Shown here piece after piece: positions 11,271 to 63,769 of a DNA stretch of 64,000 nt (the first letter of the stretch is position 1; each line of letters begins with the position of its first letter). The stretch comes from Nemertoderma westbladi. Taxonomy: Eukaryota > Animalia > Xenacoelomorpha. Location of the stretch: NCBI GenBank assembly GCA_032718475.1, contig JAUCBJ010007900.1:113353-177352 (forward strand). The letters run 5' to 3'. The notes under the pieces are model-generated. The model was not told the DNA's origin. It searched no databases and was given only the letters and a program-made list of their open reading frames with translations. Made by a program: the position numbers and the translations under genes.

Positions 11271-11279
11271 GTTGCGGGA

Positions 11280-11860
11280 CAACCTACATCTCTTCCTTGA
11301 TCAATGCAACCTGACATCTTTAAATGGATGGTGTTTTACTCAGAACTTTAGTTAGCGCAGTTTGAACGAGGGTATCGCTTGTAACAACAGTCTGTTTTTA
11401 ACCAGCGCATTTTTCGCTCTAAAGGCAATATCGCATAGTCCGCAGAATCCGGTTACGGAAACGTAATGCATTACCTTGGATTGCGATCATATATATAATC
11501 AACCTTTGAGTATGTCTTCAAACAATGTACGGTAGTTCAAGTTGGCGAGTCATAAACTCCAACTGACTCTGTTCTCTTGAATTCCCAGAGTCAACGACCT
11601 TCAAAATAAGTTCGTGGGCCTTCTGGATGTACCCAATAGCGTTTCGGGGATCTGTGTCTCTTTTTACCGTTGCCACACAACTTCTGTTAATTGCGACCAA
11701 TGGAACAGTTGGTTATTTGGTCCCAGACAGTGACGCAACGACAGACGAGCACCAGCGGAATTGTCTACGGAAACATTAGTATCGGAACATATTAGTGCCT
11801 TCAAGCACACCACAGACGGATGTATTTTTCTCAAAGAAAACAAGAGTAACAACAACTCAA
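11280..11860 (-). pseudogene. Probable P-element/THAP-type transposase remnant
   Basis: Frameshifted peptides ...LGPNNQLFHWSQLTEVV / ...SQLEFMTRQLEL resemble, from memory only, the WSQL...L.FL.EQL region upstream of invertebrate P-type transposase cores. Confidence 0.35.
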
Positions 11861-11877
11861 GGGATTTCCGTTTTTGT

Positions 11878-13692: not shown

Positions 13693-13749
13693 CAGGAGAG
13701 CCAGGGAATAACGACGATACAGTATACTCTTTAGTTTTTGTAGTACAGT

Positions 13750-14010
13750 GAGACAGGGGGGGAAACTGGACGCAAAACCCGCCTTGGCGAATTAATATCC
13801 CGCCTCAATGTTAAATTCTAAATTTAGGGAGAGGAGCAAGTTACAGTGGCACGTTATTTTAACCAAAACAATAAACTAATCACAATAGAACAGGTTACAG
13901 TTTTATTTTTGAGAATAATCAGCTGTTATTTGCGTCGAATTTCCCCTGGAGAGGGATGAATTTGTATTGCGTCCAGTTCCCCCCCCCCCCCCTCTCCCCC
14001 CCTATCTGAG
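13750..14010 (+). repeat. Dispersed MITE-like repeat, copy B, with terminal inverted repeats
   Basis: GGGGGGGAAACTGGACGCAA ... TTGCGTCCAGTTCCCCCCC; homologous to 11046-11270. Confidence 0.7.
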
Positions 14011-14554
14011 TACAGTTCTACTTGTATTAGGCTACTTTGCTATTGTTTATACATGGCACTGAATGTTCATTATTATTAGTAGTAGTATTAGCGTAATGAA
14101 TTACCAGAAAACGCATATGTAATTAGATATTTAATTGATTGGAATTCGCATATGTTAATGTTAATTATATACTTGGCATAGTATGTACAGTAGGCCTATG
14201 AGTTGAGGTCATTCTTAACAACCACTTTGTTAGGTAATCTCAATTTTGGCTCAGTAAGTTCTGATTTGCTTTTGATGATAAAGTTATTTACTGCTGATGA
14301 TGCGATTTGTGATTAGCTTTGTGTTTCATTTGCTCTGTTTAGTTTATTTAATAATAAATTTTAAAAAGTACAGTAATATTCATCGTCTTGTTTTATAATA
14401 TAATACATGGAAAACAAATAAAGCTTTTTCCAGCTGACCCCGGATGTTGCATTTTCTGAGCGTGGATTACCGAATGAAGTTAAATACAACAAGGAGTGAT
14501 AGGGAAAGAAATGCATTTGTTTTCATCTAATATGTAATTTTATTTGACAAAATT

Positions 14555-14880
14555 GCCTTTTCACCACCCGCTATTGACTTTTTCACCTCCCGTTATTGAC
14601 TTTTCACCTTCCATAATTAACTTTTTCACCTCCCTCCCTCCGTTATTGACTTTTTCACCCCCGTTATTGATTTTTTACCTCCCGTTATTGCCTTTTTCAC
14701 CTTCCGTTATTACTTTTTCGCCTCCCTCCCTCCCGTTATTGACTTATTCACCCCCGTTATTGACTTTTTCACCTCCCGTTATTGCCTTTATCACACCCCG
14801 TTATTGCCTTTTCACATCCGGTTATTGCCTTTTTCACCTCCCGTTATTGCCCTTTTCATCTCCCGTTATTGCCCTTTCAT
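14555..14880 (+). repeat. Pyrimidine-rich ~21-22-bp minisatellite (TTTTCACCTCCCGTTATTGAC/GCC)
   Basis: About 15 degenerate copies of CCCGTTATTG.C.TTTTCAC. Confidence 0.85.
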
Positions 14881-15310
14881 CTATACGTGCTCGCAGTAAA
14901 CCATTGCGGGGATTGCCGCGTCGCTTCCAGGTTCTTCCGGTAGACGTTGGATGGATATGGGTGTGTCTTAAGTACCAGTTTGGTTACCAGAAACATAACG
15001 AATTACTGCCACTGAATGGTAATCCGAATAGCAGCTACAGTATACTGTAGACCTACAACAGTATTAGTCCACGAAATACTGAATCTTATATAATAAAAAT
15101 ATTATATTATAATAATAATATTATAAAAATAAGTTGCCTTTATTTCAATTACATCCCTCTTCTATATTTGTTGGGATAAAGTCCAATCTTTATTCTTGAA
15201 AAGTCAGCTTTAAATCTGCAGGAAAGGCAACTTTGTGGACTAAATTTATATTATATTTCATTGTATTCATTATGTAAATATTCCAGTGGTTTGTGTTTAT
15301 TTTTGTGACA

Positions 15311-15472
15311 ATGCAGAGCAAATACGTGTCGGTTCCCAGTCACGCATCCACTCCGAGGTCATCCTCTTTCAATTGGAGAACCCCTGTCCCTTCGGTTACA
15401 AACTCAACTACAAGTCTCAAAGCCAAATGGGAAGAAGAGGAAAAGGAAGAAAGAGCAAAGAGAGCCAAAAAG
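15311..15472 (+). CDS. Host gene coding exon 1 (MQSKYVSVPSHASTPR...EEEEKEERAKRAKK)
   Basis: Acceptor TTCCAG at 15286 (frame also open from 15287), ATG at 15311, donor AAG|GTAATA, phase 0. Confidence 0.65.
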
Positions 15473-18400
15473 GTAATAACTAGAAGTACCGCTGGTTTTA
15501 CTACTGGGAGTGATATCTGATAGGAGCTGTTGGTGAAGTATCACTATCTCTTTCGTGCAAAGAATTTATGCTCTGACTCTTTCTCCCATAGGGCGCATTA
15601 AGAGCGAAAAGATAATTTTTAGCCTGATGATCTAGCATCAAATGAAGTCTGATTATTGAGCAATTCTATATGCCTGTTCCGCATATAAAAGAAAAAATAT
15701 TGAAAAAAGTTAATTTTTCCCTATATTTTTTTCTTCTGTCAATTATACTTTTTTTTAATTGCACGATATACAAATAGGGCCTACACAATTTCAATTATAA
15801 TTAATATAGTGATTAATGACAATCCGCCATAAGTTAATAAGCTGTACGGTATTTAATCATATTAATTAAATGTATTACATATATTTTCCAGAAAGCTGAC
15901 AGAATTTTCAAAGAATTGAAAATACTTAGGGATCTTTCGGAAGAGAAATATATTGAGACTGTTCGAAAACAAACCGAACAAAAGAGATTGTCTATAAAGT
16001 TAGTAACGCAATTACCGATTGTCTGCCCTACTTCAGTAGTTGAAGTTGTGTCACAGGAAGTAGGCCTGGCCTTTCTCACTAGTTTAGGGAAGTTAGTGTA
16101 ACAGAGTAGGCCTGGCCTTTCTCACTAGTTTAGGGAAGTTAGTGTTACAGGAAGTAGTCTGGCCTTTCTCAGTAGTTAGGGAAGTTACTGGTACAGGAAG
16201 TAGACCTGGCCTTTCTCACTAGTTTTGGGAAGTTAGTGTTACAGGAAGTAGTCTGGCCTTTCTCAGTAGTTAGGGAAGTTACTGGTACAGGAAGTAGACC
16301 TGGCCTTTCTCACTAGTTTTGGGAAGTTAGTGTTACAGAGTAGGCCTGGCCTTTCTCACTAGTTTAGGGAAGTTAGTGTTACAGAGTAGACCTGGCCTTT
16401 CTCACTAGTTATATAAGTTAGTGTTACAGGAACGGTAGGCCTGGCCTTTCTCAGTAGTTAGGGAAGTTATTGTTACAGGAAATCGACCTGGCCTTTCTCA
16501 GTAGTTAGGGAAGTTAGTGTTACAGGAACGGTAGACCTGGCCTTTCTCAGTAGTTAGGGAAATTAGTGTTTCAGGAAGTAGACCTGGCCTTTCTCAGTAG
16601 TTAGGGAAGTTACTGGTACAGGAAGTAGACCTGGCCTTTCTCACTAGTTATATAAGTTAGTGTTACGGGAAGTAGACCTGGCCTTTCTCAGTAGTTAGGG
16701 AAGTTAGTGTTACAGGAAGTAGTCTGGCCTTTCTCTGTAGTTAGGGAAGTTAGTGTTACAGGAACGGTAGACCTGGCCTTTCTCAGTAGTTAGGGAAGTT
16801 AGTGTTACAGGAAGTAGACATGGCCTTTCTCAGTATTTAGGGAAGTTAGTGTTACAGGAAGTAGTCTGGCCTTTCTCAGAAGTTAGGGAAGTTATTGTTA
16901 CAGGAAGTAGACCTGGCCTTTCTCAGTAGTTAGGGAAGTTAGTGTTACAGGAAGTAGTCTGGCCTTTCTCTGTAGTTAGGGAAGTTAGTGTTACAGGAAC
17001 GGTAGACCTGGCCTTTCTCAGTAGTTAGGGAAATTAGTGTTTCAGGAAGTAGACCTGCCTTTCTCAGTGGTTAGGGAAGCTATTGTTACAGGAAGTAGAC
17101 CTGGCCTTTCTCAGTAGTTAGGGAAGTTAGTGTTACAGGAAGTAGTCTGGTCTTTCTCAGTAGTTAGGGAAGTTACTGGTACAGGAAGTAGACCTGGCCT
17201 TTCTCAGTAGTTAGGGAAGTTAGTGTTACAGGAAGTAGTCTGGCCTTTCTCAGTAGTTAGGGAAGTTAGTGTTTTTAGGAAGTAGACCTGGCCTTTCTCA
17301 GTAGTTAGGGAAGTTAGTGTTACAGGAAGTAGTCTTGGCCTTTCTCAGTAGTTAGGGAAGTTAGTGTTACAGGAAGTAGTCTGGCCTTTCTCAGTAGTTA
17401 GGGAAGTTAGTGTTACAGGAAGTAGACCTGGCCATTCTCAGTAGTTAGGGAAGTTACTGGTACAGGAAGTAGACCTGGCCTTTCTCAGTAGTTAGGGAAG
17501 TTAGTGTTACAGGAAGTAGTCTGGCCTTTCTCAGTAGTTAGGGAAGTTAGTGTTTTTAGGAAGTAGACCTGGCCTTTCTCAGTAGTTAGGGAAGTTAGTG
17601 TTACAGGAAGTAGTTTGGCCTTTCTCAGTAGTTAGGGAAGTTAGTGTTACAGGAAGTAGTCTGGCCTTTCTCAGTAGTTAGGGAAGTTACTGTTACAGGA
17701 AGTAGACCTGGCCTTTCTCAGTAGTTAGGGAAGTTAGTGTTACAGGAAGTAGTCTGGCCTTTCTCAGTAGTTAGGGAAGTTAGTGTTTTTAGGAAGTAGA
17801 CCTGGCCTTTCTCACTAGTTAGGGAAGTTACTGGTACAGGAAGTAGACCTGGCCTTTCTCAGTAGTTAGGGAAGTTAGTGTTACAGGAAGTAGTCTGGCC
17901 TTTCTCAGTAGTTAGGGAAGTTAGTGTTTTTAGGAAGTAGACCTGGCCTTTCTCAGTAGTTAGGGAAGTTAGTGTTACAGGAAGTAGACCTGGCCTTTCT
18001 CAGTAGTTAGGGAAGTTAGTGTTACAGGAAGTAGTCTGGCCTTTCTCAGTAGTTAGGGAAGTTAGTGTTTGTAGGAAGTAGACCTGGCCTTTCTCAGTAG
18101 TTAGGGAAGTTACTGGTACAGGAAGTAGACCTGGCCTTTCTCAGTAGTTAGGGAAGTTAGTGTTACAGGAAGTAGTCTGGCCTTTCTCAGTAGTTAGGGA
18201 AGTTAGTGTTACAGGAAGTAGTCTGGCCTTTCTCAGTAGTTAGGGAAGTTAGTGTTAGAGGAAGTAGACCTGGCCTTTCTCAGTAGTTAGGGAAGTTACT
18301 GGTACAGGAAGTAGACCTGGCCTTTCTCAGTAGTTAGGGAAGTTAGTGTTACAGGAAGTAGTCTGGCCTTTCTCAGTAGTTAGGGAAGTTAGTGTTACAG

Positions 18401-21400
18401 GAAGTAGACCTGGCCTTTCTCAGTAGTTAGGGAAGTTACTGGTACAGGAAGTAGACCTGGCCTTTCTCAGTAGTTAGGGAAGTTAGTGTTACAGGAAGTA
18501 GTTTGGCCTTTCTCAGTAGTTAGGGAAGTTAGTGTTACAGGAAGTAGTTTGGCCTTTCTCAGTAGTTAGGGAAGTTAGTGTTACAGGAAGTAGTCTGGCC
18601 TTTCTCAGTAGTTAGGGAAGTTAGTGTTACAGGAAGTAGACCTGGCCTTTCTCAGTAGTTAGGGAAGTTAGTGTTACAGGAAGTAGTCTGGCCTTTCTCA
18701 GTAGTTAGGGAAGTTACTGGTAAGGGAAGTAGACCTGGCCTTTCTCAGTAGTTAGGGAAGTTAGTGTTACAGGAAGTAGTCTGGCCTTTCTCAGTAGTTA
18801 GGGAAGTTAGTGTTACAGGAAGTAGTCTGGCCTTTTTCAGTAGTTAGGGAAGTTAGTGTTACAGGAACGGTAGGCCTGGCCTTTCTCAGTAGTTAGGGAA
18901 GTTACTGGTACAGGAAGTAGACCTGGCCTTTCTCAGTAGTTAGGGAAGTTAGTGTTACAGGAAGTAGACCTGGCCTTTCTCAGTAGTTATATAAGTTAGT
19001 GTTGCAGGAAGTAGACCTGGCCTTTCTCAGTAGTTAGGGAAGTTATTGTTACAGGAAGTAGACCTGGCCTTTCTCACTACTGCCCTGGTCGCAGTAAATA
19101 GGCCCGGCATTCTTCTGGGTTAGACACAACTCCGAAGTGTATGGCAGAGGACGTCATTGTGTTTGCGCTTTTCAAAAATGAAAACAACAAACTAAACTTA
19201 AGAACCCAAATTACAAGTTAATTTCTGTCGTCGGGTTATTGTTTTCCGATATTAATTCAGCCTTGTTAACACATGCTATTTAACATCGTTCCACCACCCG
19301 CCATTCCCCGTTATTTATAATCATAATTTAAACGTCCGAGTTATTCGAGATAATAATTTTACAGGAGATCAGAGGAAAAACATACCCGAGAGCACTTAGC
19401 AACGGCAGAAAACAAAGATGGTCATAAACAACGACTTCGGCGGCATCCCTTAAAGAACAATCGGGATTACCTCGACAACATAGAACAATCTCACATGTAC
19501 AAGGTTGGCGTTAAATAAATATTCCAAATGAAGCTTGAAAAAAAGGAGTGCAGCTGTATGCTAGTGGGGGGCAATAAACACATTGTTGAACAATTCTAAC
19601 GGTATTAACTGTTCTAGTAAATTTCTCGTGCTTCTAGGTTTTTCAAACATAAGCGACATTGTGATTACTACAGTAATACTACAGTGCTATGGGACTTATT
19701 TTAGTATCGGAGCCACAATATTCTAATATCCAGCTTAGAATCTGATCGCTCAAAACGTTGTACCACTTTATCCCCAGTAAATTAATTTTTTCTATTTTTT
19801 TTTCTAATTTTTTTCTTTTGTATTTTTTTCTCTGTTATTTTTCTGTAGCCTATTAGATCTTTAGAAAAAAAAAACAGACAAAGCAATCAAGGTAGTCGTG
19901 AAACAAATAATTATTCTCCCCATTTTATTCTTCCTCTCATGATAGTTCAAAATTCACAACTACCATGGCAACGACCCAAAGCACACCAAAGTTTGCTAAT
20001 TTCATCTCGGACTACTATTTCTATAACTTAGCTAAAATTCCCATAGGACTAGAAAGTATTCCATGAAACTATGTCATTAAAGTGATGTACTTGGTAGGAG
20101 TGAAATATTTTATTCAGAAAAACTATAATGTATTAGCAAAGCGCAAAATACGAGTAAATAAATATAAGATTTAAAGATTGTCATGTCGAGCTACCATCAG
20201 CATGACGTGCGAGCGATCGGGTTGAAGTTTGATTACACCAAAATTCACCAGTACCTGTTTATACGAGACTGGTTAATTTTACTCAGTCAGTATATTGGGT
20301 CTACAATCAACGACGTCGACGCTAGTTGCATATACAAACGCCACCACAATGAGTGAGAAAACGAAAAATTAAGATATTCAATAAAATAAATTTATTATAA
20401 TATTAAATAGATTCCTCAGTTTAGGGCCTCCTTCTTTAAACATTTCATAGGTAAATCTTAGCTATTTGTCCGTATTCCATGAAAGTGACGTCACTAAACT
20501 CCGTAAGTCTGTAAGTGTGGAATATTATATTGAGTATAACTAGTATGTATTCACAAAGTGAAAAGAACGAGTAAATATTTGGTTTACATGTCCAATTGTG
20601 ATAATAAAATAAAATCCAAGCGATGGCGACAGTGAAGAAACTTCCCGAGAAAATATATAATTTTACTTTTATAGATTCCGCTTCACATCCCCGCACTTTT
20701 TCGATGTATATTTGGCTCAGCATGTAGATATAGGAGAAGCCCATGAACAGTTCGAATGAGATTTCGTGAACGAAATAGTTTTCGCTTGAACTCACGTATG
20801 TTAGAGTGATCAAACAACTCTGTTCCATTTCATAACTGACGAAGTTAACCCAACAAAGCGGTTTGTACCACCATCGGTTTATCCTGGGGGCGCATCTCAA
20901 CTGAGTTGCGAGATACGCGATTCCCAGTAGGATACGCGGCGAGCTGTGCAAGGCGATGCAGATACGGAATATATAGCGTTCTGGAGTTCCATCGCCCACG
21001 GCAGCGCTGAGAGAAGGGAGAAAATTCGAGACGTTACAATGAGTCATAGTTGTCTCTTCGAAGTGAATGGCTAGAGAGATAGCTACGCATGCCATTAGAC
21101 TGCCTAGAGGTAGCAATGGTAAAATGTAGAGGTAGGTGGCAGGAAACTTTACCATTGGGACGATATCTCTCAGATGTTGTTGGTTCGCAGTGTATTTTCG
21201 TTTGGAATCATCAATTTGTTCATGATTATCAAACTCATCAATGATTCCTGGGTCTCCGTTATTAGAGTGTATTTTCTTATTAGATCTGTTCATTTCCACT
21301 TTTCTTTGTAAATAAAAGGGAATTGGAAAAATCTATAAAGTATAATTCAAAGGCAACATCAGTGAAATAAAATCTGATTGAATGTTTAACAGAATATATT

Positions 21401-24400
21401 TTCTGTCAAACGAATACGCAAACAAACAATAACAACAATATTATATACTTTATAGTAGTTTGATGTTTGTTTGTTTATGTTTGTTTGTTATATTTAAAAT
21501 AAATCTGCCTTAGTTGGGGAACTCAAAACAAGAGTCTTACACGTTACACCCCATAAACTACAAAAAAATATAGAATCAGGACATTAAGCCCAAATTAGTA
21601 CTCAGGCCCTAGGCCAATCAAAGGACACAATAAAAAAAAACAACAAACAAAACAAATATAATAACATGCTCCACATACAGGTATGTATCGCAACCCTAAC
21701 CCTAAACCTAACCGCCATGCGCTAAATGATACCGGTAGTAAACTGCACGAAACCTAAGCCTATATTCTATAAGAAAATATATGACAATTTTGTCGCCGTT
21801 TTGGGGAAAATTAACAGTTTGACAAGAAACAATAAACGCTCCTCAAAAGTTCCGGCTAAAAAACACTGGCTATCATTAAGAAAACACTTTATTCTCACCT
21901 CGGCAAAAATTTGCGCAGTTTAAGATATGTTTTAGAGTGCGCAATTATTAAAGTAATATATAAATTAACCATCGCCTTTTCACGAATGTTACAACGAACG
22001 GCTGTACATTATTAAGTTATATTATACTATGCTATATTACTAATGCTATACTAATACTAATACTATGCTATACTACTAATGCTATATTATACAAGTTATA
22101 TTACAGTATATATTACCAATGTAGGTGTCTCAACAACTTCATAGACCTATCTCTGAGGTTTAAACTTAGGCTAAAGTTTTCAAGATCAATAACATGCTTA
22201 CTTATTCTGTTTACACTGTTATATACCATCATCATAGAATTGATTGTGTTGGTTGAAACAAGGCAGTCATTCGCAAGAGACATGATGTCATACTGTTAAT
22301 TCAACATGTATGAATGTATAGTATGGAGTGGAGGGAGACATTCAACAGCACACTGCACACTGCCTGGATGAGAGGTGATGTGGGGACTCAGAACAGTGAA
22401 TTCGCTAAGCGAATGTACTGCCTTGCCTACATAATGTATGTAGTTATTGACTATTATTATTCTGACACTGCTGCAATAAACAATACCTATTACCTTTGTT
22501 AACATCTGTTTTAGTCGCAATTAGTCGTAAAGTTATATGGTAGACGTTTCTAAGGTGGCTCTGCACGGCCACTATGAGTCATGTCTGGACTAAATCTATC
22601 TACTGTACGGATAAGATCAAGGAAATACATTTATTTATTGATCTTACTTACAACTTCCGTAAGGGAATGAGATTCTATTAAAAGAGGGAAACGATGGGGA
22701 AGCAGCTATTAAAACAAATCAGACAGCAAACTTGGTGCAAATCTATTCTGTTAAAAGGTATGAAGCCGCTAGGGGGGACTTGAAAGTTTTTTAATCTACC
22801 GCAAAAGCCGAATTGTCTAAATTTTAAAACCTTTTCTAATTTCCGTAAAGCGAAATCTTGCCAGATAAAGTATAGACTACAGGCTGCATCGATGAGGTAG
22901 CGCTGCACCCACCGTCTGCGCAATTCCCCAGTTCCCAGTATCGAAAGTTGTCTGTCAAAAGTTTAGAAATGTTTCAAATATAATTTGCTTGGGGCGTTTG
23001 AGCAGCAGGAGTGTCACCGTCTATCGTTTTGGCTGCCTAATGGTTTGGAGTTCCGGAGTTTTGCATCAAATAGTGGGTCTTTCCTTCATGAAATTAAAAC
23101 AAACTTTATATGTTGCGTTGTCTATAAAAAGTTTTATAAATGTATATTTGGCGGGCCTTTCGCTCGTCACTTGAGCGACGGAATACACCTCGCATAATAT
23201 AAGTGAATGTGTCTCGTTCTGCGTGAAGAACGTTCCACGAACGTGTTGTCTGTAAGCGATAGAATTATTCGCCGGGAATTGTTTTTTATTTTTTTTAAAT
23301 ATATATCTATGTAACGGGATGTAGTGATAAACATACAGTACTATTATTAAAAAACAAAAAAGAAACAGTCATTAATTAAACAATGGGGTCGATAAGCCAA
23401 CTATGCTGTATTCTGTAATAGCCAAGAATACAGGCCATGTAGCTAAGATTTAGGGCATATTAGCGCAGTCTGAAGGTTTCAATAGGCTATATATGGGTTA
23501 TTCAATCTTTAGGTCCGCGTAGCGAGACCTCTTACTAGTATTCACTCCGTTGTTGTTGTTATTTTCTCGTTAGGTTTTGGTATTAACGCTAGATACCGTC
23601 CCAGTGGCTCAGTTGGCAGAGCGTGGGACATGGAATCTCTAGTTACTGAGTTCAATCACCCATTACGGTGAATGTTTTTTTGTTGTAAGATTGGTAGTAA
23701 GTCATTCAAGGAGGAGACAGTTCATGCGTTAGTAGACGCGGACCTTTGCTGCCCGATATCGCGCTTGTTATTATTGATAGTTAGACAATGTTTGTATAAT
23801 TATTAGTCGAATTATACTTCTAGTAAACTATATTTTGTAATTTGTTATGTTTGTACTGTTTGTAATTTGTTATGTTTGTACTGTTTGTAATTTTTTATGT
23901 TTGTACTGTTTGTACTGTTTGTAATTTATTATGTTTGTACTGTTTGTAATTTATATGTTTGTACTGTTTGTAATTTATTATGTTTGTACTATATTTATAC
24001 TTTTAAAGCTTGTTGTTTGCAATGTAAATTTATTACAAAATACAAATTTTAGATTTTAGGAGACCAAAAGGAGCATCAGAAAACCGGGAAAATTAAAGAT
24101 AATGACGACCTGGATACATTCTGGGAACATTACGATAAACCGAGTTGCTACAATTCATATATACGGGAACTGCCGAGTGAAGAATTGTGTAGTAAAGTTG
24201 ATAAACACAGAGGTGGGAACATTTGATAAACACAGAAGGCAAGAACAGATTGATAAACCTAGAGATAGGAACAGATTGATAAACACAGAGGTAGGAACAC
24301 CAAAACAGGTTGATAAACACAGAGGTAGAAAGAAGGAATAGGTTGATAAACACGAGGTAGGAACATAGTAACAGATTGATAAACACAGAGGGAGGAACAT

Positions 24401-51400: not shown

Positions 51401-54400
51401 TTTATAAACACAGAGGTAGAAAGTAGGCATAGGTTGATAAACACAGAGGTAGGAACATAGTAACAGATTGATAAACACAGAGGTAGGAACATAGTAACAG
51501 ATTGATAAACACAGAGGTAGGAACATAGTAACAGATTGATAAACACAGAGGTAGGAAAGTAGTAACATATTGATAAACACAGAGGTAGGAACATAGTAAC
51601 AGATTGATAAACACAGAGGTAGGAAAGTAGTAACATATTGATAAACACAGAGGTAGGAACATATTTATAAACGCAGAGGTGGGAACATAGTAACAGATTG
51701 ATAAACACAGAGGTAGGAAAGTAGTAACATATTGATAAACACAGAGGTAGGAACATATTTATAAACACAGAGGTAGGAACATGGTAACAGATTGATAAAC
51801 ACAGAGGTAGGAAAGTAGTAACATATTGATAAACACAGAGGTAGGAACATATTGATAAACACAGAGGTAGGAACATAGTAACAGATTGATAAACACAGAG
51901 GTAGGAACGTAGTAACATATTGATAAACACAGAGGTAGGAACATATTTATAAACACAGAGGTAGAAAGTAGGCATAGGTTGATAAACACAGAGGTAGGAA
52001 CATAGTAACAGATTGATAAACACAGAGGTATGAAAGTAGTAACATATTGATAAACACAGAGGTAGGAACATAGTAACAGATTGATAAACACAGAGGTAGG
52101 AAAGTAGTAACATATTGATAAACACAGAGGTAGGAACATAGTAACAGATTGATAAACACAGAGGTAGGAAAGTAGTAACATATTGATAAACACAGAGGTA
52201 GGAACATAGTAACAGATTGATAAACACAGAGGTAGGAAAGTAGTAACATATTGATAAACACAGAGGTAGGAACATATTTATAAACACAGAGGTAGAAAGT
52301 AGGCTTAGGTTGATAAACACAGAGGTAGGAACATAGTAACAGATTGATAAACACAGAGGTAGGAACATAGTAACAGATTGATAAACACAGAGGTAGGAAA
52401 GTAGTAACATATTGATAAACACAGAGGTAGGAACATATTTATAAACAATAGGTTGATAAACACAGAGGTTGGAACATAGTAACAGATTGATAAACACAGA
52501 GGTAGGAAAGTAGTAACATATTGATACTACTACTACTACTACTACTAGGATCGGCATGCTGCATTGCAGCTGCATTTTTAAGAATGCTGTGCCGGCTTGT
52601 CAACAAAATTGCACCGCCACAACTCCCTATCACCCATGACATTTGCTAGATCATCCGCATCTTTAAGGCCAGTGTCCTTTAAGATGCGTCTCAAGAAAGT
52701 CATGGGCTGTCCACCATGCTTATTCACTCCATGAGGCTGCCAAAGTACAAGATTATGCACTGGCTGATCCTCACGGCGAAAGCAATGTCCTGCAAAGCGG
52801 AGGCGATTTTGTTCTAGTGTCAAGCTTGGGGGAACCAATGAGACACCTCCAATGTTATATAGTGTCTGGTTGGAGATGTGTGCATTGTACTTTACACAAT
52901 GAACCCGGCGTAGCATTCTTGTGAATGTGCCATCCAGAGATTTGGTGTCCTCAGCAGTTAGAGCCCAGCATGGACTCCCGTAGAGGAGTACTGGAACTAC
53001 TGCTGCTCTAAATAATCGGACCTTAAGTTTCCGATTAATTCTCGGTGACTTCCAAATCCTGGAAAGCCTATTCAAGGCTGCCCATGCCTTTCCCTTATGT
53101 ATTCGAAGGTCCTCACCTGACTTCCGGATCCATGATCCCAGGTAACAGAAGTCGTCCACATGCTCAAGCATACCATCCTTTGAGCTTATGCTCATCCGAT
53201 CAGAGACTTGCTGAGGACTTTCAAAGTTAACTGTCAGAATTTTGGTCTTTCTGGAGTTAATAAAAAGACCAACACTAGAAGCAGCATGTTCTAATGAGCT
53301 GAGGAGCCGTTGGGCTCCCTCTAATGATTCTGAGAGTACTCCTAAGTCATCAGCAAAGTCTAGATCAGTTAGGTACTTGGCAGGATTTCCTCGACTTCTG
53401 GAGCCAGTAGGTGGAGTTATCATCACCCCATCATCATTATAATGATCTAAGGACATGCGTAGAACATAGTCAACCACAATAATGAACAAGAATGGTGCAA
53501 GTGTGTCTCCTTGGAGGACGCCCCATAACACTTCAAATGGTTCTGTGTCACCGTCAACAGTAGACACAAGACATATTGACTATATACCAACATATCAACA
53601 TATTGATAAACACAGAGGTAGGAACATATTTATAAACACAGAGGTAGAAAGTAGGCATAGGTTGATAAACACAGAGGTAGAAAGTAGGAATAGGTTGATA
53701 AACACAGAGGTAGGAACATAGTAACAGATTGATAAACACAGAGGTAGGAAAGTAGTAACATATTGATAAACACAGAGGTAGGAACATATTTATAAACACA
53801 GAGGTAGAAAGTAGGCCTAGGTTGATAAACACAGAGGTAGAAAGTAGGAATAGGTTGATAAACACAGAGGTAAAAGTAGGAATAGGTTGATAACCACAGA
53901 GGTAGGAACATATTGATAAACACCGAGGTAGGAAGAGATTGATAAACATAGAGGTAGGAACATATTGATAAACACCGAGGTAGGAAGAGATTGATAAACA
54001 TAGAGGTAGGAACATATTGATAAACGCATATATAGGAACATGCAGTAGTAACAGGTTGATAAACACCGAGGTAGGAACATATTGATAAACACAGAAATAG
54101 GAACATACAGTAGTAACAGGTTGATAAACACAGAGGTAGGAACATATTGATAAACACCGAGGTAGGAAGAGATTGATAAACATAGAGGTAGGAACATATT
54201 GATAAACACCGAGGTAGGAAGAGATTGATAAACACAGAGATAGGAACATATTGATAAACATAGAGGTAGGAACATATTGATAAACACGGAGATAGGAACA
54301 TATTGATAAACACAGAGGTAGGAAGAGATTGATAAACATAGAGGTAGGAACATATTGATAAACACAGAGATAGGAACATATTGATAAACATAGAGGTAGG

Positions 54401-57400
54401 AACATATTGATAAACACTGAGATAGGAACATATTGATAAACACAGAGGTAGGAAGAGATTGATAAACATAGAGGTAGGAACATATTGATAAACACAGAGG
54501 TAGGAACATAGTAACAGATTGATAAACACAGAGGTAGGAAAGTAGTAACATATTGATAAACACAGAGGTAGGAACATATTATTGATAAACACCGAGGTAG
54601 GAAGAGATTGATAAACATAGAGGTAGGAACATATTGATAAACACATATATAGGAACATATTGATAAACACAGAGGTAGGAAGAGATTGATAAACATAGAG
54701 GTAGGAACATATTGATAAACACAGAGGTAGGAACATAGTAACAGATTGATAAACACAGAGGTAGGAAAGTAGTAACAGGTTGATAAACGCCGAGGTAGGA
54801 ACATATTATTGATAAACACCGAGGTAGGAAGAGATTGATAAACATAGAGGTAGGAACATATTGATAAACACATATATAGGAACATGCAGTAGTAACAGGT
54901 TGATAAACACCGAGGTAGGAACATATTGATAAACACAGAAATAGGAACATACAGTTGTAACAGGTTGATAAACACAGAGGTAGGAACATATTGATAAACA
55001 CAGATATAGGAACATAATGATAAACACGGAGATAGGAACATACAGTTGTAACAGGTTGATAAACACAGAGGTAGGAACAGGTTGATAAACACAGAGGTAG
55101 AAAGTAGGAACATATTGATAAACACAGAGGTAGAAAGTTGGATCAGATTGATGAACGCAGAGGTAGGAACATTTGATAAACTACTACTACTACGATCGGC
55201 ATGCTGCATTGCAGCTGCATTGTATATATTACATATATATTAAGAATGCTGTGCCGGCTTTTCGACAAAATCGCGCCGCCACAATTCCCTATCACCCATG
55301 ACATTTGCTAGTTCATCCGCATCTTCAAGGCCAGTGTCCTTTAAGATGCGTCTCATGTCATAGGCTGTCCACCATGCTTATTCGCTCCATGATGCCGCCA
55401 AAGCACAAGATTATGCACTGGCGGGTCCTCACGGCTAAAGCAATGTCCTGCAAACCGGAGGAGGTTCCGTTCAAGTGTCAAGCTAGGGAAGACTAATGGA
55501 ACACCTCCAATGTTGTATAGAGTCTGATTGGAGTTGAGGAGATGTGTGCATTGTACTTGACTCAATGAACCAGGCGCAGCATTATTGTGAATGTGCCATC
55601 AGGAGATTTGGTATCCTATGCAGTAAGAGCCCAGCATGGACTCTCATATAAGAGTACTGGTTCTGCTACTGCCATAAATTATCGAACCTAAAGGTTCCGT
55701 TTTATTCTATGGGAGTTCCAAATCCTGGACAGACTATTTAACGCTACCCATGCCTTCACCTTACGTATCCGAAGGTCTTCACCTGACTTTCTGATCCATG
55801 AGCCCAAGTAGCAGAAGTAGTTTGATAAACACAAAAGGTAGTAAGTAGGAACAGGTTGATAAACACAGTATTAGGAACAGATTGATGAACACAAAGGTAG
55901 GAAACATATTATAAACACGATTCTGATCAATAATATAATATACTTCGCAGAGTACCACACCACCACCGTATTATTTATCTTAGATTTAGTTCTATTTCAT
56001 CTTGAAATATGTCTAGGTTACGGAAGTAGTTCGGAATTTGATCGAAGCGAAGGTATAGGAACAATAGAGGAGAGAGATGAAGGACCAGCGACAATATCTA
56101 AGGATGAAAAGATTACATCCAAGTAAGAAGCGGATATGTGTTAATTTACAATAAATATAATGGAATGGAACATTTAAATGAAACCAAAATGAGCTAGATT
56201 AATCAGAAATTATATTAAGATCATAATATTATTATTACATATAATATCACTTTATAAGGCTCTGATATCTCCAGTCATTTTTCAAAAATAATTATTATTC
56301 TTAAATTGTTACTTTTTCGGGCGAATATTCCCAAAAATCGGGATAAATAGGAGTATTTTTATTCTTTTTTTCATTGGATTTAAGTAACCCATAGGATTCA
56401 TTGATTTTACTTATTCTCAGCGAAAGAAGTAATTACTATAATAAATGTATAATAAACCTTGAAGTTAAACTTAGAGAATATTAACAGAATAAGTAAATGG
56501 AGTTTATCAGCTGGTAGTTACTACAGTATACGATATACAATAAATATTTGCAAATTAGGCTGTAAATGTATATAGAACAGGGCGTTTAAAGTAGGATTCC
56601 AAATATCCCTGTCCTCTCTGCCAAATGACCCCACGTGTTGGGAGGATTGGCATGTTTGACCTCTGTCGACTAAATCGATCCTAACGTTTTAACAACTGTT
56701 TAAAATCAATACAAACTATGACTGAAAGATAGCCCAATAAATTCTGGACAAAATGAGAACTCATATTAAACAAATGAGTAAACAGATTGGAAGATATGAG
56801 CGTATTAGACAAAAACATGCCGAAAGTCCCTACCCTCCCCTACAGTAATTTTAATCGCAGTAACTACAGTATGGAAGCAATATAGTAAAATTCTGCAGTT
56901 CAAATTATCTTGTAACACTTTCTTTGTATCTTTTATTAATAATGAATTAGCACTAAAAAGTACCAATTATTTAAGAGTAAAATTTCATATTACATAGGAA
57001 AAAACGTGGAACATTTTTTTTCAATATTTCCCCGCCTCGACACTTTATTAACCTTACTTATTAACCTTGGCGTTATTAACAGTGGAGAAAAGGTCTAAAT
57101 TTTTCACCAAGTAATAAGTAATTAATTTTTCTTCTGCGTTTGTTTTGGGCCATGTTGTTCTTCTGATTCTGAAAAAGAGAGTAAAACCTCCCAAAATGAG
57201 TTACAACGGAAACGGTACTTTAGTGCTGTACTACTGTATATCAAACCAGCACATAACTATTACTTTCATTTTTTGGTAAACTGTACAAAATTTTTTTATT
57301 GAAATTTACCATGCTTATACGGCGTATACGGAATCTCTGTAATTTTCTTCTCCTCTTTATTGTAATTTTAACTACAGTATAACTATTAATCACTAATACT

Positions 57401-60400
57401 GTACATTACTAGACCATTGCTATTAAAGACCGTCAGGCCCTAAGTTGTCCAGTTCGCTCGACCTAGTACAGTAGTAGTAGTACAGGCCCTAAGAAGGACA
57501 GTTTAACAGAATTATAGCGGCACATATACTTGACCTCTCAACGAGTAAGCCCCAACGGTCTTCTAATTAAATGTAATTTGATGATATCACGAGAACCGAT
57601 CATATAATTTTTTTTAATGTAATTGTACAGTTTGGTGAACTGCACCCAACGATTTATCACAATTCATATTTCGGATGACAGGTAGCGGTGAAATCCGACC
57701 GGGTGTTCCATAATGATTGCCAACCCCCCCCCCCCCCCCCCCCCTGGCCAGCCAAAACTGCCAGACATGTACTTTAGTGTAATATATCCTTCGAAAGATA
57801 ATTTAATTCTGAGCTTACACGCAAAAATTGAGGGTCCAATACAAAAGTATAAAAATTTCATAGGCTATTCTTTAAACCTATCTTATTTTTCGTTATTTTT
57901 TATTTAATCACAATTAAAACAAATATAATTTATCCAGCGTTAGTCATCAGCTTTACAGCCATGATTCCCCTTTGCAGCACGGGGAGCTCCTCGATAGTGG
58001 CAAAGGATGTTGGCCCTTAAAAGGGCCGTTTTGGTTTGAGTTCAGTTTGATTATGCCACAGAATCACGACCCTCTCTAAAAGTAACATCTCTGATCCTGT
58101 CAACCATACGTTTTTCTTCACAATCATCGAAGATTGCACTGGAACTTGTCATTTTAATTACTTCTGTTAGGCCTAATTCAGTAAAATTACCAAAGACACA
58201 TTAATACCGGTAACTGAATACTGTAATATATTGCAATACAGCAAAAGTCAAGCAGTAATAACTGTTTAAACAGGGTTGCAAATCTGATGACTAACCCTGG
58301 ATAAATTATATTTTTTTAAAATTGTGATTAAATCACAAATATTGGAAAGAAAGATTGGTTTAAAGAATTGCCTATAAAATTTTCATACTTTTGTATTGGA
58401 CCCTAAATTTTTGCATGTAAGCTCAGAATTAAATTCTCTTTCAAATGATATATTACACTAAAGTACATGTCTGGCAGTTTTGGCTGGCCATGGGGGGGGG
58501 CAATCATTATAGAACACACGGTAGTTAGTTAAATATTGTTTCTGCTAAATTATTGTTTTTTTCTATGTGTTACTTGTTTCCCAGGTAACTTAGTTTTATA
58601 GTCAATAAAACAAATACATATATGTATATATGCTTACAACAGTACTACTGTATATACACATATAGATATACTGTATGTAATAATTTTTAGTATTCAACGG
58701 AGATGGAGTAGAGTGGCCTGGTTGACGCCGCGTAGACGATCGCTGCGTTCATTCACGTTCAATAAGAAACGAGTGACTTACGATGCGGCCAAGTTCCCGC
58801 AGAAACCCTACCCAGAGTTAACAGTGTACCGGGAGGAAATATCCGACCCAGTGCCAGAACCGAAACAGGTAAAAATATCCGACCCAGTGCAGTGCCAGAA
58901 CTGAAACAGGTAAAAATATCCGACCCAGTGCCAGAACCTCAACAGGTAAACATATCCGACCCAGTACCAGAACCGAAACAGGTAAAAATATCCGACCCAG
59001 TACCAGAACCGAAACAAGCAAAAATATCCAACCCAGTACCAGAACCGAAACAGGTCAAAATATCCGACCCAGTACTAGAACCGAAACAGGTGAAAATATC
59101 CGACCCAGTACCAGAACCGAAACAGGTGAAAATATCCGACCCAGTACCAGAACCGAAACAGGTAAAAATATCCGACCCAGTACCAGAACCGAAACAGGTA
59201 AAAATATCCGACCCAGTACCAGAACCGAAACAGGTAAAAATATCCGACCCAGTATCAGAACCGAAACAGGTAAAAATATCCGAGCCAGTACCAGAACCGA
59301 AACAGGTAAAAATATCCGACCCAGTACCAGAACCGAAACAGGTAAAAATATCCGACCCAGTACCAGAACTGAAACAGGTAAAAATATCCGACCCAGTACC
59401 AGAACCGAAATAGATAAAAATATCCGACCCAGTACCAGAACCAAAACAGGTAAAAATATCCGACAAATTTCCGACCCAGTACCAGAACCGAAACAGGTAA
59501 AAATATCCGACCCAGTACCAGAACGGAAACAGGTAAAAATATCCGACCCAGTACCAGAACCGAAACAGGTAAAAATATCCGACCCAGTACCAGAACCGAA
59601 ACAGGTAAAAATATCCGACCCAGTACCAGAACCGAAACAGGTAAAAATATCCAACCCAGTACCAGAACTGAAACAGGTAAAAATATCCGACCCAGTACCA
59701 GAACTGAAACAGGTAAAAATATCCGACCCAGGACCAGAACCGAAACAGGTAAAAATATCCGACCCAGTACCAGAACCGAAACAGGTAAAAATATCCGACC
59801 CAGTACCAGAACCGAAACAGGTAAAAATATCCGACCCAGTACCAGAACTGAAACAGGTAAAAATATCCGACCCAGTACCAGAACTGAAACAGGTAAAAAT
59901 ATCCGACCCAGTACCAGAACTGAAACAGGTAAAAATATCCGACCCAGTACCAGAACTGAAACAGGTAAAAATATCCGACCCAGTACCAGAACCGAAACAG
60001 GTAAAAATATCCGACCCAGTACCAGAACCGAAACAGGTAAAAATATCCGACCCAGTACCAGAACTGAAACAGGTAAAAATATCCGACCCAGTACCAGAAC
60101 CGAAATAGATAAAAATATCCGACCCAGTACCAGAACCGAAATAGGTAAAAATATCCGACCCAGTACCAGAACCGAAACAGGTAAAAATATCCGACCCAGT
60201 ACCAGAACTGAAACAGGTAAAAATATCCGACCCAGTACCAGAACTGAAACAGGTAAAAATATCCGACCCAGTACCAGAACGGAAACAGGTAAAAATATCC
60301 GACCCAGTACCAGAACCGAAACAGGTAAAAATATCCGACCCAGTACCAGAACCGAAACAGGTAAAAATATCCGACCCAGTACCAGAACCGAAACAGGTAA

Positions 60401-63400
60401 AAATATCCGACCCAGTACCAGAACTGAAACAGGTAAAAATATCCGACCCAGTACCAGAACTGAAACAGGTAAAAATATCCGACCCAGTACCAGAACTGAA
60501 ACAGGTAAAAATATCCGACCCAGTACCAGAACTGAAACAGGTAAAAATATCCGACCCAGTACCAGAAGCGAAACAGGTAAAAATATCCGACCCAGTACCA
60601 TAACCGAAACAGGTAAAAATATCCGACCCAGGACCAGAACCGAAACAGGTAAAAATATCCGACCCAGTACCAGAACCGAAACAGGTAAAAATATCCGACC
60701 CAGTACCAGAACCGAAACAGGTAAAAATATCCGACCCAGTACCAGAACTGAAACAGGTAAAAATATCCGACCCAGTACCAGAACTGAAACAGGTAAAAAT
60801 ATCCGACCCAGTACCAGAACTGAAACAGGTAAAAATATCCGACCCAGTACCAGAACTGAAACAGGTAAAAATATCCGACCCAGTACCAGAACCGAAACAG
60901 GTAAAAATATCCGACCCAGTACCAGAACCGAAACAGGTAAAAATATCCGACCCAGTACCAGAACTGAAACAGGTAAAAATATCCGACCCAGTACCAGAAC
61001 CGAAATAGATAAAAATATCCGACCCAGTACCAGAACCGAAATAGGTAAAAATATCCGACCCAGTACCAGAACCGAAACAGGTAAAAATATCCGACCCAGT
61101 ACCAGAACTGAAACAGGTAAAAATATCCGACCCAGTACCAGAACTGAAACAGGTAAAAATATCCGACCCAGTACCAGAACTGAAACAGGTAAAAATATCC
61201 GACCCAGTACCAGAACTGAAACGGGTGAAAATATCCGACCCAGTACCAGAACCGAAACAGGTAAAAATATCCGACCCAGTACCAGAACCGAAACAGGTAA
61301 AAATATCCGACCCAGTACCAGAACTGAAGCAGGTAAAAATATCTGACCCAGTACCAGAACTGAAACAGGTAAAAATATCCGACCCAGTACCAGAACTGAA
61401 ACAGGTAAAAATATCCGACCCAGTACCAGAACTGAAACAGGTAAAAATATCCGACCCAGGCCCAGAACCGAAACAGGTAAAAATATCCGACCCAGTACCA
61501 GAACCTAAACAGGTAAAAATATCCGACCCAGTACCAGAAGCGAAACAGGTAAAAATATCCGACCCAGTACCAGAACCGAAACAGGTAAAAATATCCGACC
61601 CAGTACCAGAACTGAAACAGGTAAAAATATCCGACCCAGTACCAGAACCGAAACAGGTAAAAATATCCGACCCAGTACCAGAACCGAAACAGGTAAAAAT
61701 ATCCGACCCAGTACCAGAACCGAAACAGGTAAAAATATCCGACCCAGTACCAGAACCGAAACAGGTAAAAATATCCGACCCAGTACCAGAACCGAAACAG
61801 GTAAAAATATCCGACCCAGTACCAGAACCGAAACAGGTAAAAATATCCGACCCAGTACCAGAACCGAAACAGGTAAAAATATCCGACCCAGTACCAGAAC
61901 CGAAACAGGTAAAAATATCCGACCCAGTACCAGAACTGAAACAGGTAAAAATATCCGACCCAGTACCAGAACCGAAACAGGTAAAAATATCCGACCCAGT
62001 ACCAGAACCGAAACAGGTAAAAATATCCGACCCAGTACCAGAACCGAAACAGGTAAAAATATCCGACCCAGTACCAGAACCGAAACAGGTAAAAATATCC
62101 GACCCAGTACCAGAACCGAAACAGGTAAAAATATCCGACCCAGTACCAGAACCGAAACAGGTAAAAATATCCGACCCAGTACCAGAACCGAAACAGGTAA
62201 AAATATCCGACCCAGTACCAGAACCGAAACAGGTAAAAATATCCGACCCAGTACCAGAACCGAAACAGGTAAAAATATCCGACCCAGTACCAGAACCGAA
62301 ACAGGTAAAAATATCCGACCCAGTACCCGAACCGAAACAGGTATAAATATCCGACCCATTACCAGAACCCAAACAGGTGAAAATATCCGACCCATTTCCA
62401 GAACCTAAACGGGTGAAAATATCCGACCCATTTCCAGAACCCAAACAGGTGAAAATATCCGACCCATTTCCAGAACCTAAACGGGTGAAAATATCCGACC
62501 CATTTCCAGAACCTAAACGGGTGAAAATATCCGACCCATTTCCAGAATCTAAACGGGTGAAAATATCCGACCCATTACCAGAACGAAAACTAACATAATA
62601 TGTTTTAATAGTTTTTTTCATAATATTCCAGAGATGGCGAATTTTGAATGTTTTGGGGCACTTAAGTCCATATATGGTCTATATATTAATAATAAGTTCG
62701 AAACTGTAATAGGATCCACGTTTTCCATAAGTTTTAAGCTGGTATCCTGGATTCTGGAGTGGATGTTTAGTAGAGGAGCCGCGATCTCGATTGGGACTGC
62801 AGTTTAATAATGTTTTGTCTAGGTGAGGAGGCAACGAAATCGCGAAAGGCGAGAAGAACGAAGAACGCGTAGATTGGAACATTTACGAACAATGTACGAT
62901 CATTCGCACCTCAACGAGGTCAACGCCAATAGATTAATAGACAAACGAACGCGGGAATTTGAATTCGTCAGAGGAGGTGAAATATTAATTATTTACTTAC
63001 TTAATTACAGTTACATACAGACCTTACATGGGAGGCCTGTAAATAAATCAATACTTAATGAATTCTCACTACGCGTCATTTTAAACAGGAGAATATAAAT
63101 TATATTGTTCACCTTACAGGTAAAAATACATTTTCTCCATCTCCAACGAAGAGTAAAATACCTAGACAACGCGTGGAGGGAGAACCTATAACAGAACCTT
63201 TAGCTTTAGAGGCCGGAGGGGGAATAATCTTACCAGCTGTAGATGTGAGACACACCCCTCTGAGTTACAGAGAAGGGTGGGTTAGAATTCCCGCAAGCGA
63301 GGTCGTTATCGCTAAGTCACCTCTACCACCGCGACGCGCTAATCATGGGCGTAAAATCGTAGGACAAACTGCGCACGTTGACACACGTGGGACCACTACA

Positions 63401-63769
63401 GACGGTAGACATACACCGACAGATGGTAGACACACTCCCCTAGCGCCCGTCGACGGTAGAAATACACCTCTAAGTTATCGGGAAGGTCGTCTAACTCCGG
63501 AGATAACCCTGGAGAGTAGTCGAACTGTAACCGAAACAGATAGAATCCCAAACGGAGATATTTATAGGAACGGTGCACCCCTGAATAACAAGCCGAACTC
63601 CCCCAACGTAAAGGAGTGGCCGATAGCTTTGGAGCAAATTCTTTCAGATTGTGATGTTAAGGAGCCCCGAGTAAAGAATATGTTTTGGACTAATTATTTA
63701 CGAATTGGTATAAAGGATAAAAATAATCAAGTTTTACCTGACGGGAAATCCACCAGTATTTTGGTCTAA
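15311..63769 (+). CDS. Predicted 8-exon gene, 551 aa, K/R/E- and P/T-rich protein of unrecognised family; join(15311..15472,15892..15998,19365..19503,24053..24212,56017..56122,58691..58868,62823..62976,63120..63769)
   Basis: Hand-assembled: all 7 introns are GT-AG, intron phases 0,2,0,1,2,0,1 all match, 1656 nt with no internal stop; start codon and last exon end are uncertain. Confidence 0.72.
15892..15998 (+). CDS. Host gene coding exon 2 (KADRIFKELKILRDLSEEKYIETVRKQTEQKRLSI)
   Basis: TTTTCCAG| acceptor, AA|GTTAGT donor, phase 0 to 2. Confidence 0.7.
16034..19080 (+). repeat. 46/47-bp satellite (GGAAGTAGACCTGGCCTTTCTCAGTAGTTAGGGAAGTTAGTGTTACA), ~65 units, filling intron 2
   Basis: Period 47 (17941 to 17988) alternating with a 46-bp GTAGTCTGG variant; edge units are diverged. 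Confidence 0.95.
19365..19503 (+). CDS. Host gene coding exon 3 (RSEEKHTREHLATAENKDGHKQRLRRHPLKNNRDYLDNIEQSHMYK)
   Basis: TTTTACAG| acceptor, AAG|GTTGGC donor, phase 2 to 0, open frame. Confidence 0.7.
20445..21299 (-). CDS. PGAP2: Post-GPI attachment to proteins factor 2 (Frag1/DRAM/Sfk1 family), single coding exon, nested antisense in host intron 3
   Basis: 284-aa ORF with HFEETTMTHCNVSNFLPSLSAAVG..PERYIFRICIALHSSPR, LTYVSSSENYFVHE, HNWTCKPNIYSFFSLCEY...NIIFH, matching PGAP2 motifs; minus-strand AATAAA about 50 nt after the stop (20391-20396). Confidence 0.92.
   Translation of the reverse strand: MEMNRSNKKIHSNNGDPGIIDEFDNHEQIDDSKRKYTANQQHLRDIVPMVKFPATYLYILPLLPLGSLMACVAISLAIHFEETTMTHCNVSNFLPSLSAAVGDGTPERYIFRICIALHSSPRILLGIAYLATQLRCAPRINRWWYKPLCWVNFVSYEMEQSCLITLTYVSSSENYFVHEISFELFMGFSYIYMLSQIYIEKVRGCEAESIKVKLYIFSGSFFTVAIAWILFYYHNWTCKPNIYSFFSLCEYILVILNIIFHTYRLTEFSDVTFMEYGQIAKIYL
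23509..23768 (+). mobile_element. Helentron/DINE-1-like non-autonomous element containing a tRNA-like segment
   Basis: Sub-terminal inverted repeat AGGTCCGCGT (23511-23520) / ACGCGGACCT (23736-23745), adjacent 5' hairpin AGGTC...GACCT, short (GTT)n tract, T-rich flanks. Confidence 0.55.
23595..23670 (+). pseudogene. Degenerate tRNA-like sequence (pseudo-tRNA or SINE head)
   Basis: A box TGGCTCAGTTGG, B box GAGTTCAATC, partial acceptor stem ACCGT/ACGGT; T-stem and anticodon arm pair poorly. Confidence 0.55.
23834..23990 (+). repeat. ~25-bp minisatellite (TTTGTAATTTGTTATGTTTGTACTG) x~6 just upstream of the exon 4 acceptor
   Basis: Directly visible tandem copies. Confidence 0.85.
24053..24212 (+). 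CDS. Host gene coding exon 4 (ILGDQKEHQKTGKIKDNDDLDTFWEHYDKPSCYNSYIRELPSEELCSKVDKHR)
   Basis: TTTTAG| acceptor, GAG|GTGGGA donor, phase 0 to 1; the last ~16 nt are the first satellite monomer core. Confidence 0.7.
52525..53569 (-). mobile_element. 5'-truncated RTE LINE (copy 2), open reading frame, inserted in the large satellite
   Basis: 329-aa ORF 52578-53567 nearly identical to copy 1 (GVLQGDTLAP, LDFADD, FCYLGS, RLRFAGH); (TAG)n tail; TSD AACATATTGATA at 52515-52526 and 53597-53608. Confidence 0.95.
55181..55820 (-). mobile_element. Older, more diverged 5'-truncated RTE LINE (copy 3)
   Basis: Same 3' end (GCAGCTGCAATGCAGCATGCCGATC + (TAG)n), many substitutions and indels; TSD TTTGATAAAC at 55172-55181 and 55821-55830. 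Confidence 0.88.
56017..56122 (+). CDS. Host gene coding exon 5 (YGSSSEFDRSEGIGTIEERDEGPATISKDEKITS)
   Basis: TGTCTAG| acceptor, AA|GTAAGA donor, phase 1 to 2. Confidence 0.7.
57699..58521. mobile_element. Tc1/mariner-like non-autonomous element with ~220-bp imperfect TIRs
   Basis: CCGGGTGTTCCATAATGATTGCC...TGGCCAGCCAAAACTGCCAGACATGTACTTTAGTGTAATATATC (left) is the reverse complement of 58300-58521; TA follows the right end, left flank is GA. Confidence 0.8.
58691..58868 (+). CDS. Host gene coding exon 6 (IQRRWSRVAWLTPRRRSLRSFTFNKKRVTYDAAKFPQKPYPELTVYREEISDPVPEPKQ)
   Basis: TTTTTAG| acceptor, CAG|GTAAAA donor, phase 2 to 0; the last ~32 nt are the first 36-bp monomer. Confidence 0.7.
58837..62590 (+). 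repeat. 36-bp satellite (GTAAAAATATCCGACCCAGTACCAGAACCGAAACAG), ~104 units, filling intron 6
   Basis: 5 units per 180 bp (59641 to 59821); shared variants at a 900-bp offset (GGACCA at 59731/60631; TAG at 60106/61006). Confidence 0.97.
62823..62976 (+). CDS. Host gene coding exon 7 (VRRQRNRERREERRTRRLEHLRTMYDHSHLNEVNANRLIDKRTREFEFVRG)
   Basis: TTTTGTCTAG| acceptor, GAG|GTGAAA donor, phase 0 to 1. Confidence 0.72.
63120..63769 (+). CDS. Host gene coding exon 8 (KNTFSPSPTKSKIPRQRVEGEPITEPLALEAGGG...STSILV*), may be terminal or may splice earlier
   Basis: CCTTACAG| acceptor, phase 1, continuous with the 198-aa ORF 63173-63769; internal D[GV]R[HN]TP repeats. Confidence 0.7.

Follow-up and report, generated by a model that had tools for sequence, protein, structure and literature searches.

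What does a gene do with an exon whose end, splice donor included, is repeated in tandem 104 times at a period that keeps the reading frame? The question is raised by a 36-bp minisatellite in a 64,000-nt stretch of Nemertoderma westbladi DNA (contig JAUCBJ010007900.1, positions 113,353 to 177,352; here called the window), which is repeat-rich eukaryotic DNA. The array takes in the end of exon 6 and the beginning of the following intron of a plus-strand gene, for which our model within the window comprises eight predicted or shown exons. An earlier note, made from the letters alone, had proposed that the array was either a variable-length protein system that had been shut off by a 5-bp duplication in its second unit, or that this duplication was a 'poison' change selected so that mis-spliced products are degraded. 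We consider it likely that the array is a neutrally expanding minisatellite whose later donors are largely silent, and a spliced contig uses the first donor.

Tandem Repeats Finder (TRF) reported a period of 36 with 103.8 copies and 96% matches. The features on which the argument turns are as follows.

58839-62599, plus strand: 36-bp minisatellite of 104 units, from the unit split and TRF.
58866-58874, plus strand: first (used) donor of exon 6, CAG|GTAAAA, with the cut after 58868.
58875-58915, plus strand: unit 2, 41 nt, with CAGTG doubled at 58885-58894 (+5 nt) and the donor still perfect.
58902-58904, plus strand: TGA in the exon 6 frame, upstream of the second donor and the first stop for all 102 later units.
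59411-59413, plus strand: TAG in unit 16, which would be the next block were unit 2 36 nt long.
59456-59502, plus strand: unit 18, 47 nt (+11), the second frameshift.
62347-62599, plus strand: diverged 3' edge family, units 98-104, with GTGAAA donors.

The array unit consists of the final 30 nt of exon 6 (10 codons) followed by the six intron nucleotides GTAAAA (2 codons). The consensus in the exon 6 frame, ISDPVPEPKQVK, ending CAG|GTAAAA, is carried by 42 units, and the monomer of 12 open codons that the earlier note had described was confirmed. At the donor register, 99 of the 103 units examined have GT, 94 have AG|GT, and 85 have the exact CAG|GTAAAA. The duplication in unit 2 is present in the window with its TGA ahead of all other donors, as had been noted. 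The later TAG and TAA variants and the insertion near 59461 that had been listed with it were found to be seven stop-bearing units (TAG at the Q codon in units 16, 35, 36, 60, and 61; TAA in units 49 and 97) and the 11 extra nucleotides of unit 18. The inference that every downstream donor leads to a premature stop was correct, since an open product results from donor 1 alone among the 99 GT donors. With the duplication removed in silico, 14 of the 99 donors would be productive (units 1-4 and 6-15) and the ladder would end at unit 15. Of the proposal that alleles lacking the duplication would give a ladder of isoforms, the frame is supported for donors 2-15, but not for the whole array.

In the diverged family at the 3' edge, the four units compared resemble unit 1 at 27-32 of 36 nt, and loose ends of this type were found in runs X1, X2, and X3. 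Both samples, S1 and S2, contain the array. With regard to recursive or staggered splicing, for which internal AG|GT sites would have to serve as acceptors, the 18 nt upstream of these sites contain 1 T, compared with 7-11 at the gene's seven true acceptors. Long open reading frames of up to 1207 aa, found in the array on the minus strand and in plus frame three, were rejected as candidates, as the T-poor unit makes few stops and as there was no synonymous excess in these frames.

Which donor is used was examined with contigs of sequencing runs. Six runs are on file and none is recorded as RNA, a blank that carries no weight. One of them, X4, is labelled 'DNA?', has zero cover of unique intron, and carries a GT..AG joint that the DNA-like runs X1 and X3 do not have; we infer from the splice joints and the cover that X4 behaves like RNA. 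We rejected the idea that the X4 contig stems from a processed pseudogene, as X4 is without intron cover and the joint is missing in X1 and X3. The X4 contig (2559 nt, depth 273) covers 58691-58870, and the letters of its loose ends are those with which exon 5 ends and exon 7 begins. It represents a different haplotype from the window, with three G>A changes in exon 6 that are common to X2. The X4 contig shows exons 3-7 and their junctions, while exons 1, 2, and 8 and the end of exon 7 are predicted. The gene model is as follows.

15311-15472, plus strand: first coding exon, predicted from the frame model.
15892-15998 or 15892-16091, plus strand: exon 2, predicted, with both candidate donors reading AA|GTTAGT and both in frame.
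19365-19503, plus strand: exon 3, in the X4 contig, spliced to exon 4 over a GT..AG intron of 4549 nt.
24053-24212, plus strand: exon 4, with the first donor GAG|GTGGGA (X4 contig 24051-24214; X5 contig 24133-24214).
56017-56122, plus strand: exon 5, its end from the X4 loose end and its length from contig coordinates.
58691-58868, plus strand: exon 6, 178 nt, phase 2 in and phase 0 out, its final 30 nt being unit 1.
62823-62976, plus strand: exon 7, its start from the X4 junction and its end predicted by frame and GT.
63120-63769, plus strand: last coding exon (exon 8), predicted, 215 aa.

When they are joined with the end of exon 2 taken as 15998, the eight exons form a frame of 551 codons that is free of internal stops. 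No family was recognized for the protein: Pfam gave nothing over the cut-off for seven exon pieces of the gene (all but exon 5), and no relative of the last-exon protein was found among 1193 candidates of 378-2000 aa or in an Atlas search (top match 0.86). The same protein gave two matches among 1.84 billion sequences, both to unrelated repeat open reading frames. The Atlas matches of the sixth exon were short bacterial hypothetical proteins of low recognition and were not accepted as relatives. At 63113-63125 on the plus strand, the acceptor of the last exon, ACAG|GTAAAAATA, shares 13 letters with the donor region of the unit, so that the exon opens donor-like; this likeness is probably due to chance.

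Only one X4 record falls on 58540-58920; its exit from exon 6 is at 58868|GT, and it continues in the exon at 62823. No contig using a later array donor was found, nor any X4 contig with inner units, in contig sets that drop rare forms. The first donor is thereby shown to be the main form used at exon 6. The earlier note had allowed for the case that exon 6 is not transcribed; this is excluded, as the exon is joined to 62823 in the X4 spliced contig. Contig depths, when summed across the array, vary from run to run and are not copy numbers.

We simulated 1148 donor-spanning duplications for the seven donors of this gene, letting each include 6-9 bases of intron and have a period of 20-60. The period was divisible by 3 in 392 of them, and 331 were open (29% of all and 84% of the 392); over all 9184 offsets, 20% were open. 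The unit frame is open because 10 of its 12 codons are exon 6's own, and with 29% of random duplications open, an in-frame donor array needs no special cause. The 30 distinct substitutions in units 2-103 comprised 15 missense, 12 synonymous, and three nonsense changes, the commonest array variant being P to L (29 units). Nonsense variants were not depleted (three of 30 vs. about one expected), and two frameshifts come in addition. The donor positions were neither spared nor targeted (nine of 30 variants in nine of 36 sites, p 0.33). A coding repeat should keep its frame open through the units; the results showed a single productive donor, the stop variants, and the frameshifts instead.

Exon 6 is not the only exon of this gene that is followed by a donor array.

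24197-55920, plus strand: exon-4 donor array of 920 units, grown from the end of exon 4, with pieces of a long interspersed nuclear element (LINE) interrupting it.
16042-19076, plus strand: 47-bp array, a third donor array if the donor of exon 2 is 16091.

The exon-4 array has periods of 34 (617 units), 26 (165 units), and 33 (115 units), of which 14% are divisible by 3. GT stands at the exon-4 register in 885 of the 920 units, 716 of them as GAG|GTAGGA, and only the first donor is productive; a TGA lies 12 nt behind it, and the two donors directly behind it are dead. GTAGGA, which most donors of this array carry, is nearer the usual donor consensus than the GTGGGA that is used. With 28 kb, most of a 31.8-kb intron, the exon-4 array is more extreme than the 36-bp array. 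The X4 contig leaves exon 4 after 24212, which is the first donor, and an X5 contig of 292 nt likewise stops there. The exon-4 array is thus out of frame and yet spliced at its first donor, which argues that donor arrays form in this gene regardless of frame. In the region of the 47-bp array, 48 AA|GTTAG sites were found within 15980-19090. The candidate donors of exon 2 at 15998 and 16091 are 93 nt apart and both in frame, the second lying inside the first 47-bp unit; it is possible that they are a real alternative-donor pair.

The arrangement at exon 6 has known counterparts. Its units are head-to-tail and within 10-100 nt, the first of them spans a real exon-intron boundary, the donor is reiterated, and the first donor is the main one. 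The array is a further splice-donor minisatellite of the F7/IFI6/CBS/lancelet type. Borensztajn et al. (2006, PMC1557585) describe reiterated donors in human F7, IFI6, CBS, LMNB2, and PDGFA. In the 37-bp variable number tandem repeat of F7 intron 7, only the first of 5-9 identical donors is used and the in-frame pseudo-sites are idle, as established by mutagenesis, and in IFI6 (6-16) intron 2 and CBS intron 13 the donor is repeated 15-25 times (PMC1557585). As in F7, the first unit here spans the exon-intron boundary, identical donors follow, and the most upstream one is used. The F7 repeat, however, has 5-9 units of 4 exon and 33 intron nt, whereas the present array has 104 units of 30 exon and 6 intron nt, its period can be divided by 3, and its unit 2 contains a stop. 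The reiterated donor is likewise common to IFI6, CBS, and exon 6, but two downstream donors are reported to be in use there, and none was seen here.

In lancelet, repeats called mirages are described for Adh3, troponin C, the globins BflGb6/9, and PGBD5, with a homogenized middle and diverged edges; several occur per gene, and harm to splicing is not reported (PMC3087553, PMC3902484). Mirages resemble the present arrays in being tandem copies of an exon-intron boundary in an invertebrate, with several in one gene and the same edge pattern. They differ in size, as the present arrays are far larger: within a single gene, exon 6 is followed by 104 units and exon 4 by about 920 (28 kb). No literature report of an in-frame donor array with a frameshift in its second unit was found in a search that was thin in subscription journals.

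Could the array nevertheless serve a functional variable-length protein system, in which duplication-free alleles give an isoform ladder and the present allele is off? The 36-nt period, the open frame, and the 85 perfect donors are what such a system would have, and 14 donors are productive once the duplication is removed. According to PMC4526556, IFI6 makes three mRNAs from its repeat donors, two downstream repeat donors being used; IFI6 is the nearest published match to the ladder of the earlier note, and it gives even a short ladder a precedent. X4, which carries the other haplotype, shows donor 1 only, however, and the TAG of unit 16, the 11 extra nucleotides of unit 18, and the stops in seven units would cut the ladder short. 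The gene's other arrays are out of frame, and the known cases use at most the two nearest pseudo-donors. We therefore regard a functional ladder as exceedingly improbable. Nor was there support for the proposal that such a system had been shut off, given an inherited frame, a sibling array that is out of frame, three nonsense variants, and two frameshifts.

Several points weigh against a neutral minisatellite with largely silent later donors. The splicing evidence comes from contigs of one run labelled 'DNA?', the RNA nature of which is inferred; contigs lose rare isoforms, and the X4 contig says nothing about the array or unit 2 of X4's own haplotype. Synonymous changes, at 12 of 30, exceeded the 23-27% expected (one-sided p 0.03-0.08), with the exon frame the best of six. 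This excess speaks against a history that was neutral throughout, and an old coding copy at the 3' edge may lie behind it. It would fit a different seed, namely a short coding repeat: the exon would once have ended in a few diverged copies, an upstream donor would have taken over, and the intronized copies would have expanded. The excess stems partly from the 3' edge family, where the differences between units 98-103 and unit 1 are at third positions and the donor is still GTGAAA, the type used at 62976; for lancelet, a gain of introns from such repeats has been proposed. The p value, however, is borderline with no correction for mutation bias, seven of the 30 variants lie at the CpG-containing positions 22-24 of the unit, and no protein relative was found for comparison. 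In units 8-97, the excess fades (seven of 19, p 0.13). We consider a coding seed very unlikely.

The remaining points on that side concern unit 2 and the donors nearest to the first. With five breaks placed uniformly over the array, the chance of a break in unit 2 is about 5%. The title of a paper on CBS reportedly names a substitution in the second repeat that limits multiple splicing; the change there is a substitution, whereas here it is a frameshifting duplication that leaves the donor intact. The nearest pseudo-donors are those used in IFI6 and CBS (PMC1557585). All three points would suit the explanation that the array is a by-product but that the duplication has been kept by selection, an in-frame leak being turned into degradable products. 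One change blocks all 102 later units, and the exon-4 array likewise has a stop and two dead donors directly behind its first donor. When the breaks are weighted by edge variation, on the other hand, the chance of a break in unit 2 rises to 22%, as rare events number 1.29 per unit in units 2-8 vs. 0.11 in units 21-96. The first stop lies 34 nt behind donor 1, which is ordinary for this gene (2-120 nt over its seven introns). The donor of unit 2 is perfect, a single haplotype of this region is known, and the duplication was found in no run. Selection for such a change is in our view unlikely.

The first donor is used in F7 without any poison, so the duplication is not required for first-donor choice. 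With unit 2 lying in the variant-rich edge as well, the 'poison' change of the earlier note is unsupported; selection on the duplication is possible but not needed. A more specific version, in which the duplication is a segregating safety catch, is very improbable: in the population, alleles with an intact unit 2 would leak to the nearest donors, the protein thereby gaining a 12-residue peptide in as many as 14 copies, and the duplication would have been selected because it sends the products of all 102 later donors to decay.

The possibility also has to be considered that the duplication is an assembly error and that the remainder stands. The doubled CAGTG was not seen in runs X1-X4 and is known from the assembly alone. 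X1 is nearly letter-for-letter identical to the window, yet its contigs end at 58883 and resume with later pieces; no X1 contig lies over 58889-58899, and the depth is 0 in the bins 58891-58920. Unit 2 is, however, absent from X1 in either form, with or without the extra 5 nt. The duplication sits in a predicted 66-nt single-copy bubble (58859-58924) between words of 47 and 28 copies. Contig clean-up is expected to remove small bubbles of this kind. Two pieces of X1, 81 and 135 nt long, correspond in length and flanking letters to units 2(end)-4 and units 5-8, respectively, as the single-copy words of the window predict, and their mismatch counts agree in three of four cases (one listed as 0 computes to 3). 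Contigs of X2 and X3 without the 5 nt (63 and 66 nt; depth 97 and 76) were considered as a duplication-free allele and rejected, as they are unanchored in the exon and fit inner units. An assembly error is highly improbable.

The neutral minisatellite with largely silent later donors most likely arose as follows. A tandem duplication across the exon-intron boundary would have seeded the array, and slippage or unequal exchange would then have expanded it and homogenized its middle. The spliceosome would favour the most upstream donor, as in human F7. The 5-bp duplication would be one of many private changes in a poorly homogenized edge, and any leak to later donors would meet a premature stop and probably lead to nonsense-mediated decay, as a side effect and not a purpose.

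Other elements were seen in the window.

20445-21332, minus strand: PGAP2/Frag1 gene of a single exon (PF10277, E 5e-37), lying antisense within intron 3.
14552-14879, minus strand: 22/43-bp array, reading GGGAG|GTGAAAA on the minus strand and adjoining unique sequence at 14880-15050.
52528-53590, minus strand; 55180-55815, minus strand; 6060-7655, plus strand: a LINE-like reverse transcriptase element in three copies, with a (TAG)n tail, recognized by eye.
57698-58522, in intron 5: element resembling a miniature inverted-repeat transposable element, its 300-nt core flanked by inverted repeats of about 270 nt that fall into three pieces and are 80-89% complementary.
11040-13960: related 200-nt flanks around a transposase-like remnant and a 22-bp array, recognized by eye.

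The best named relatives of the PGAP2/Frag1 gene are in animals (36-46% identity). It is represented by X4 contigs of differing depth (12-197) and is split in X3 too; a second copy or divergent alleles may exist. The 22/43-bp array possibly belongs, as a donor array, to a divergent transcript of the minus strand. Two of the LINE-like copies are inserted in the 34-bp satellite and one stands beside a 52-bp array.

If the duplication did act as a safety catch, the gene, in which two or three introns hold about 1000 spare donors, would be a case of selection taming its arrays, and should alleles prove to differ both at unit 2 and in the isoforms they make, this would be a clean case of selection on one repeat unit. 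At exons 4 and 6 alike the contigs use the first donor, and with 99 spare ones in frame behind exon 6 and 885 out of frame behind exon 4, the gene is an extreme natural test of choosing the first among many identical donors.

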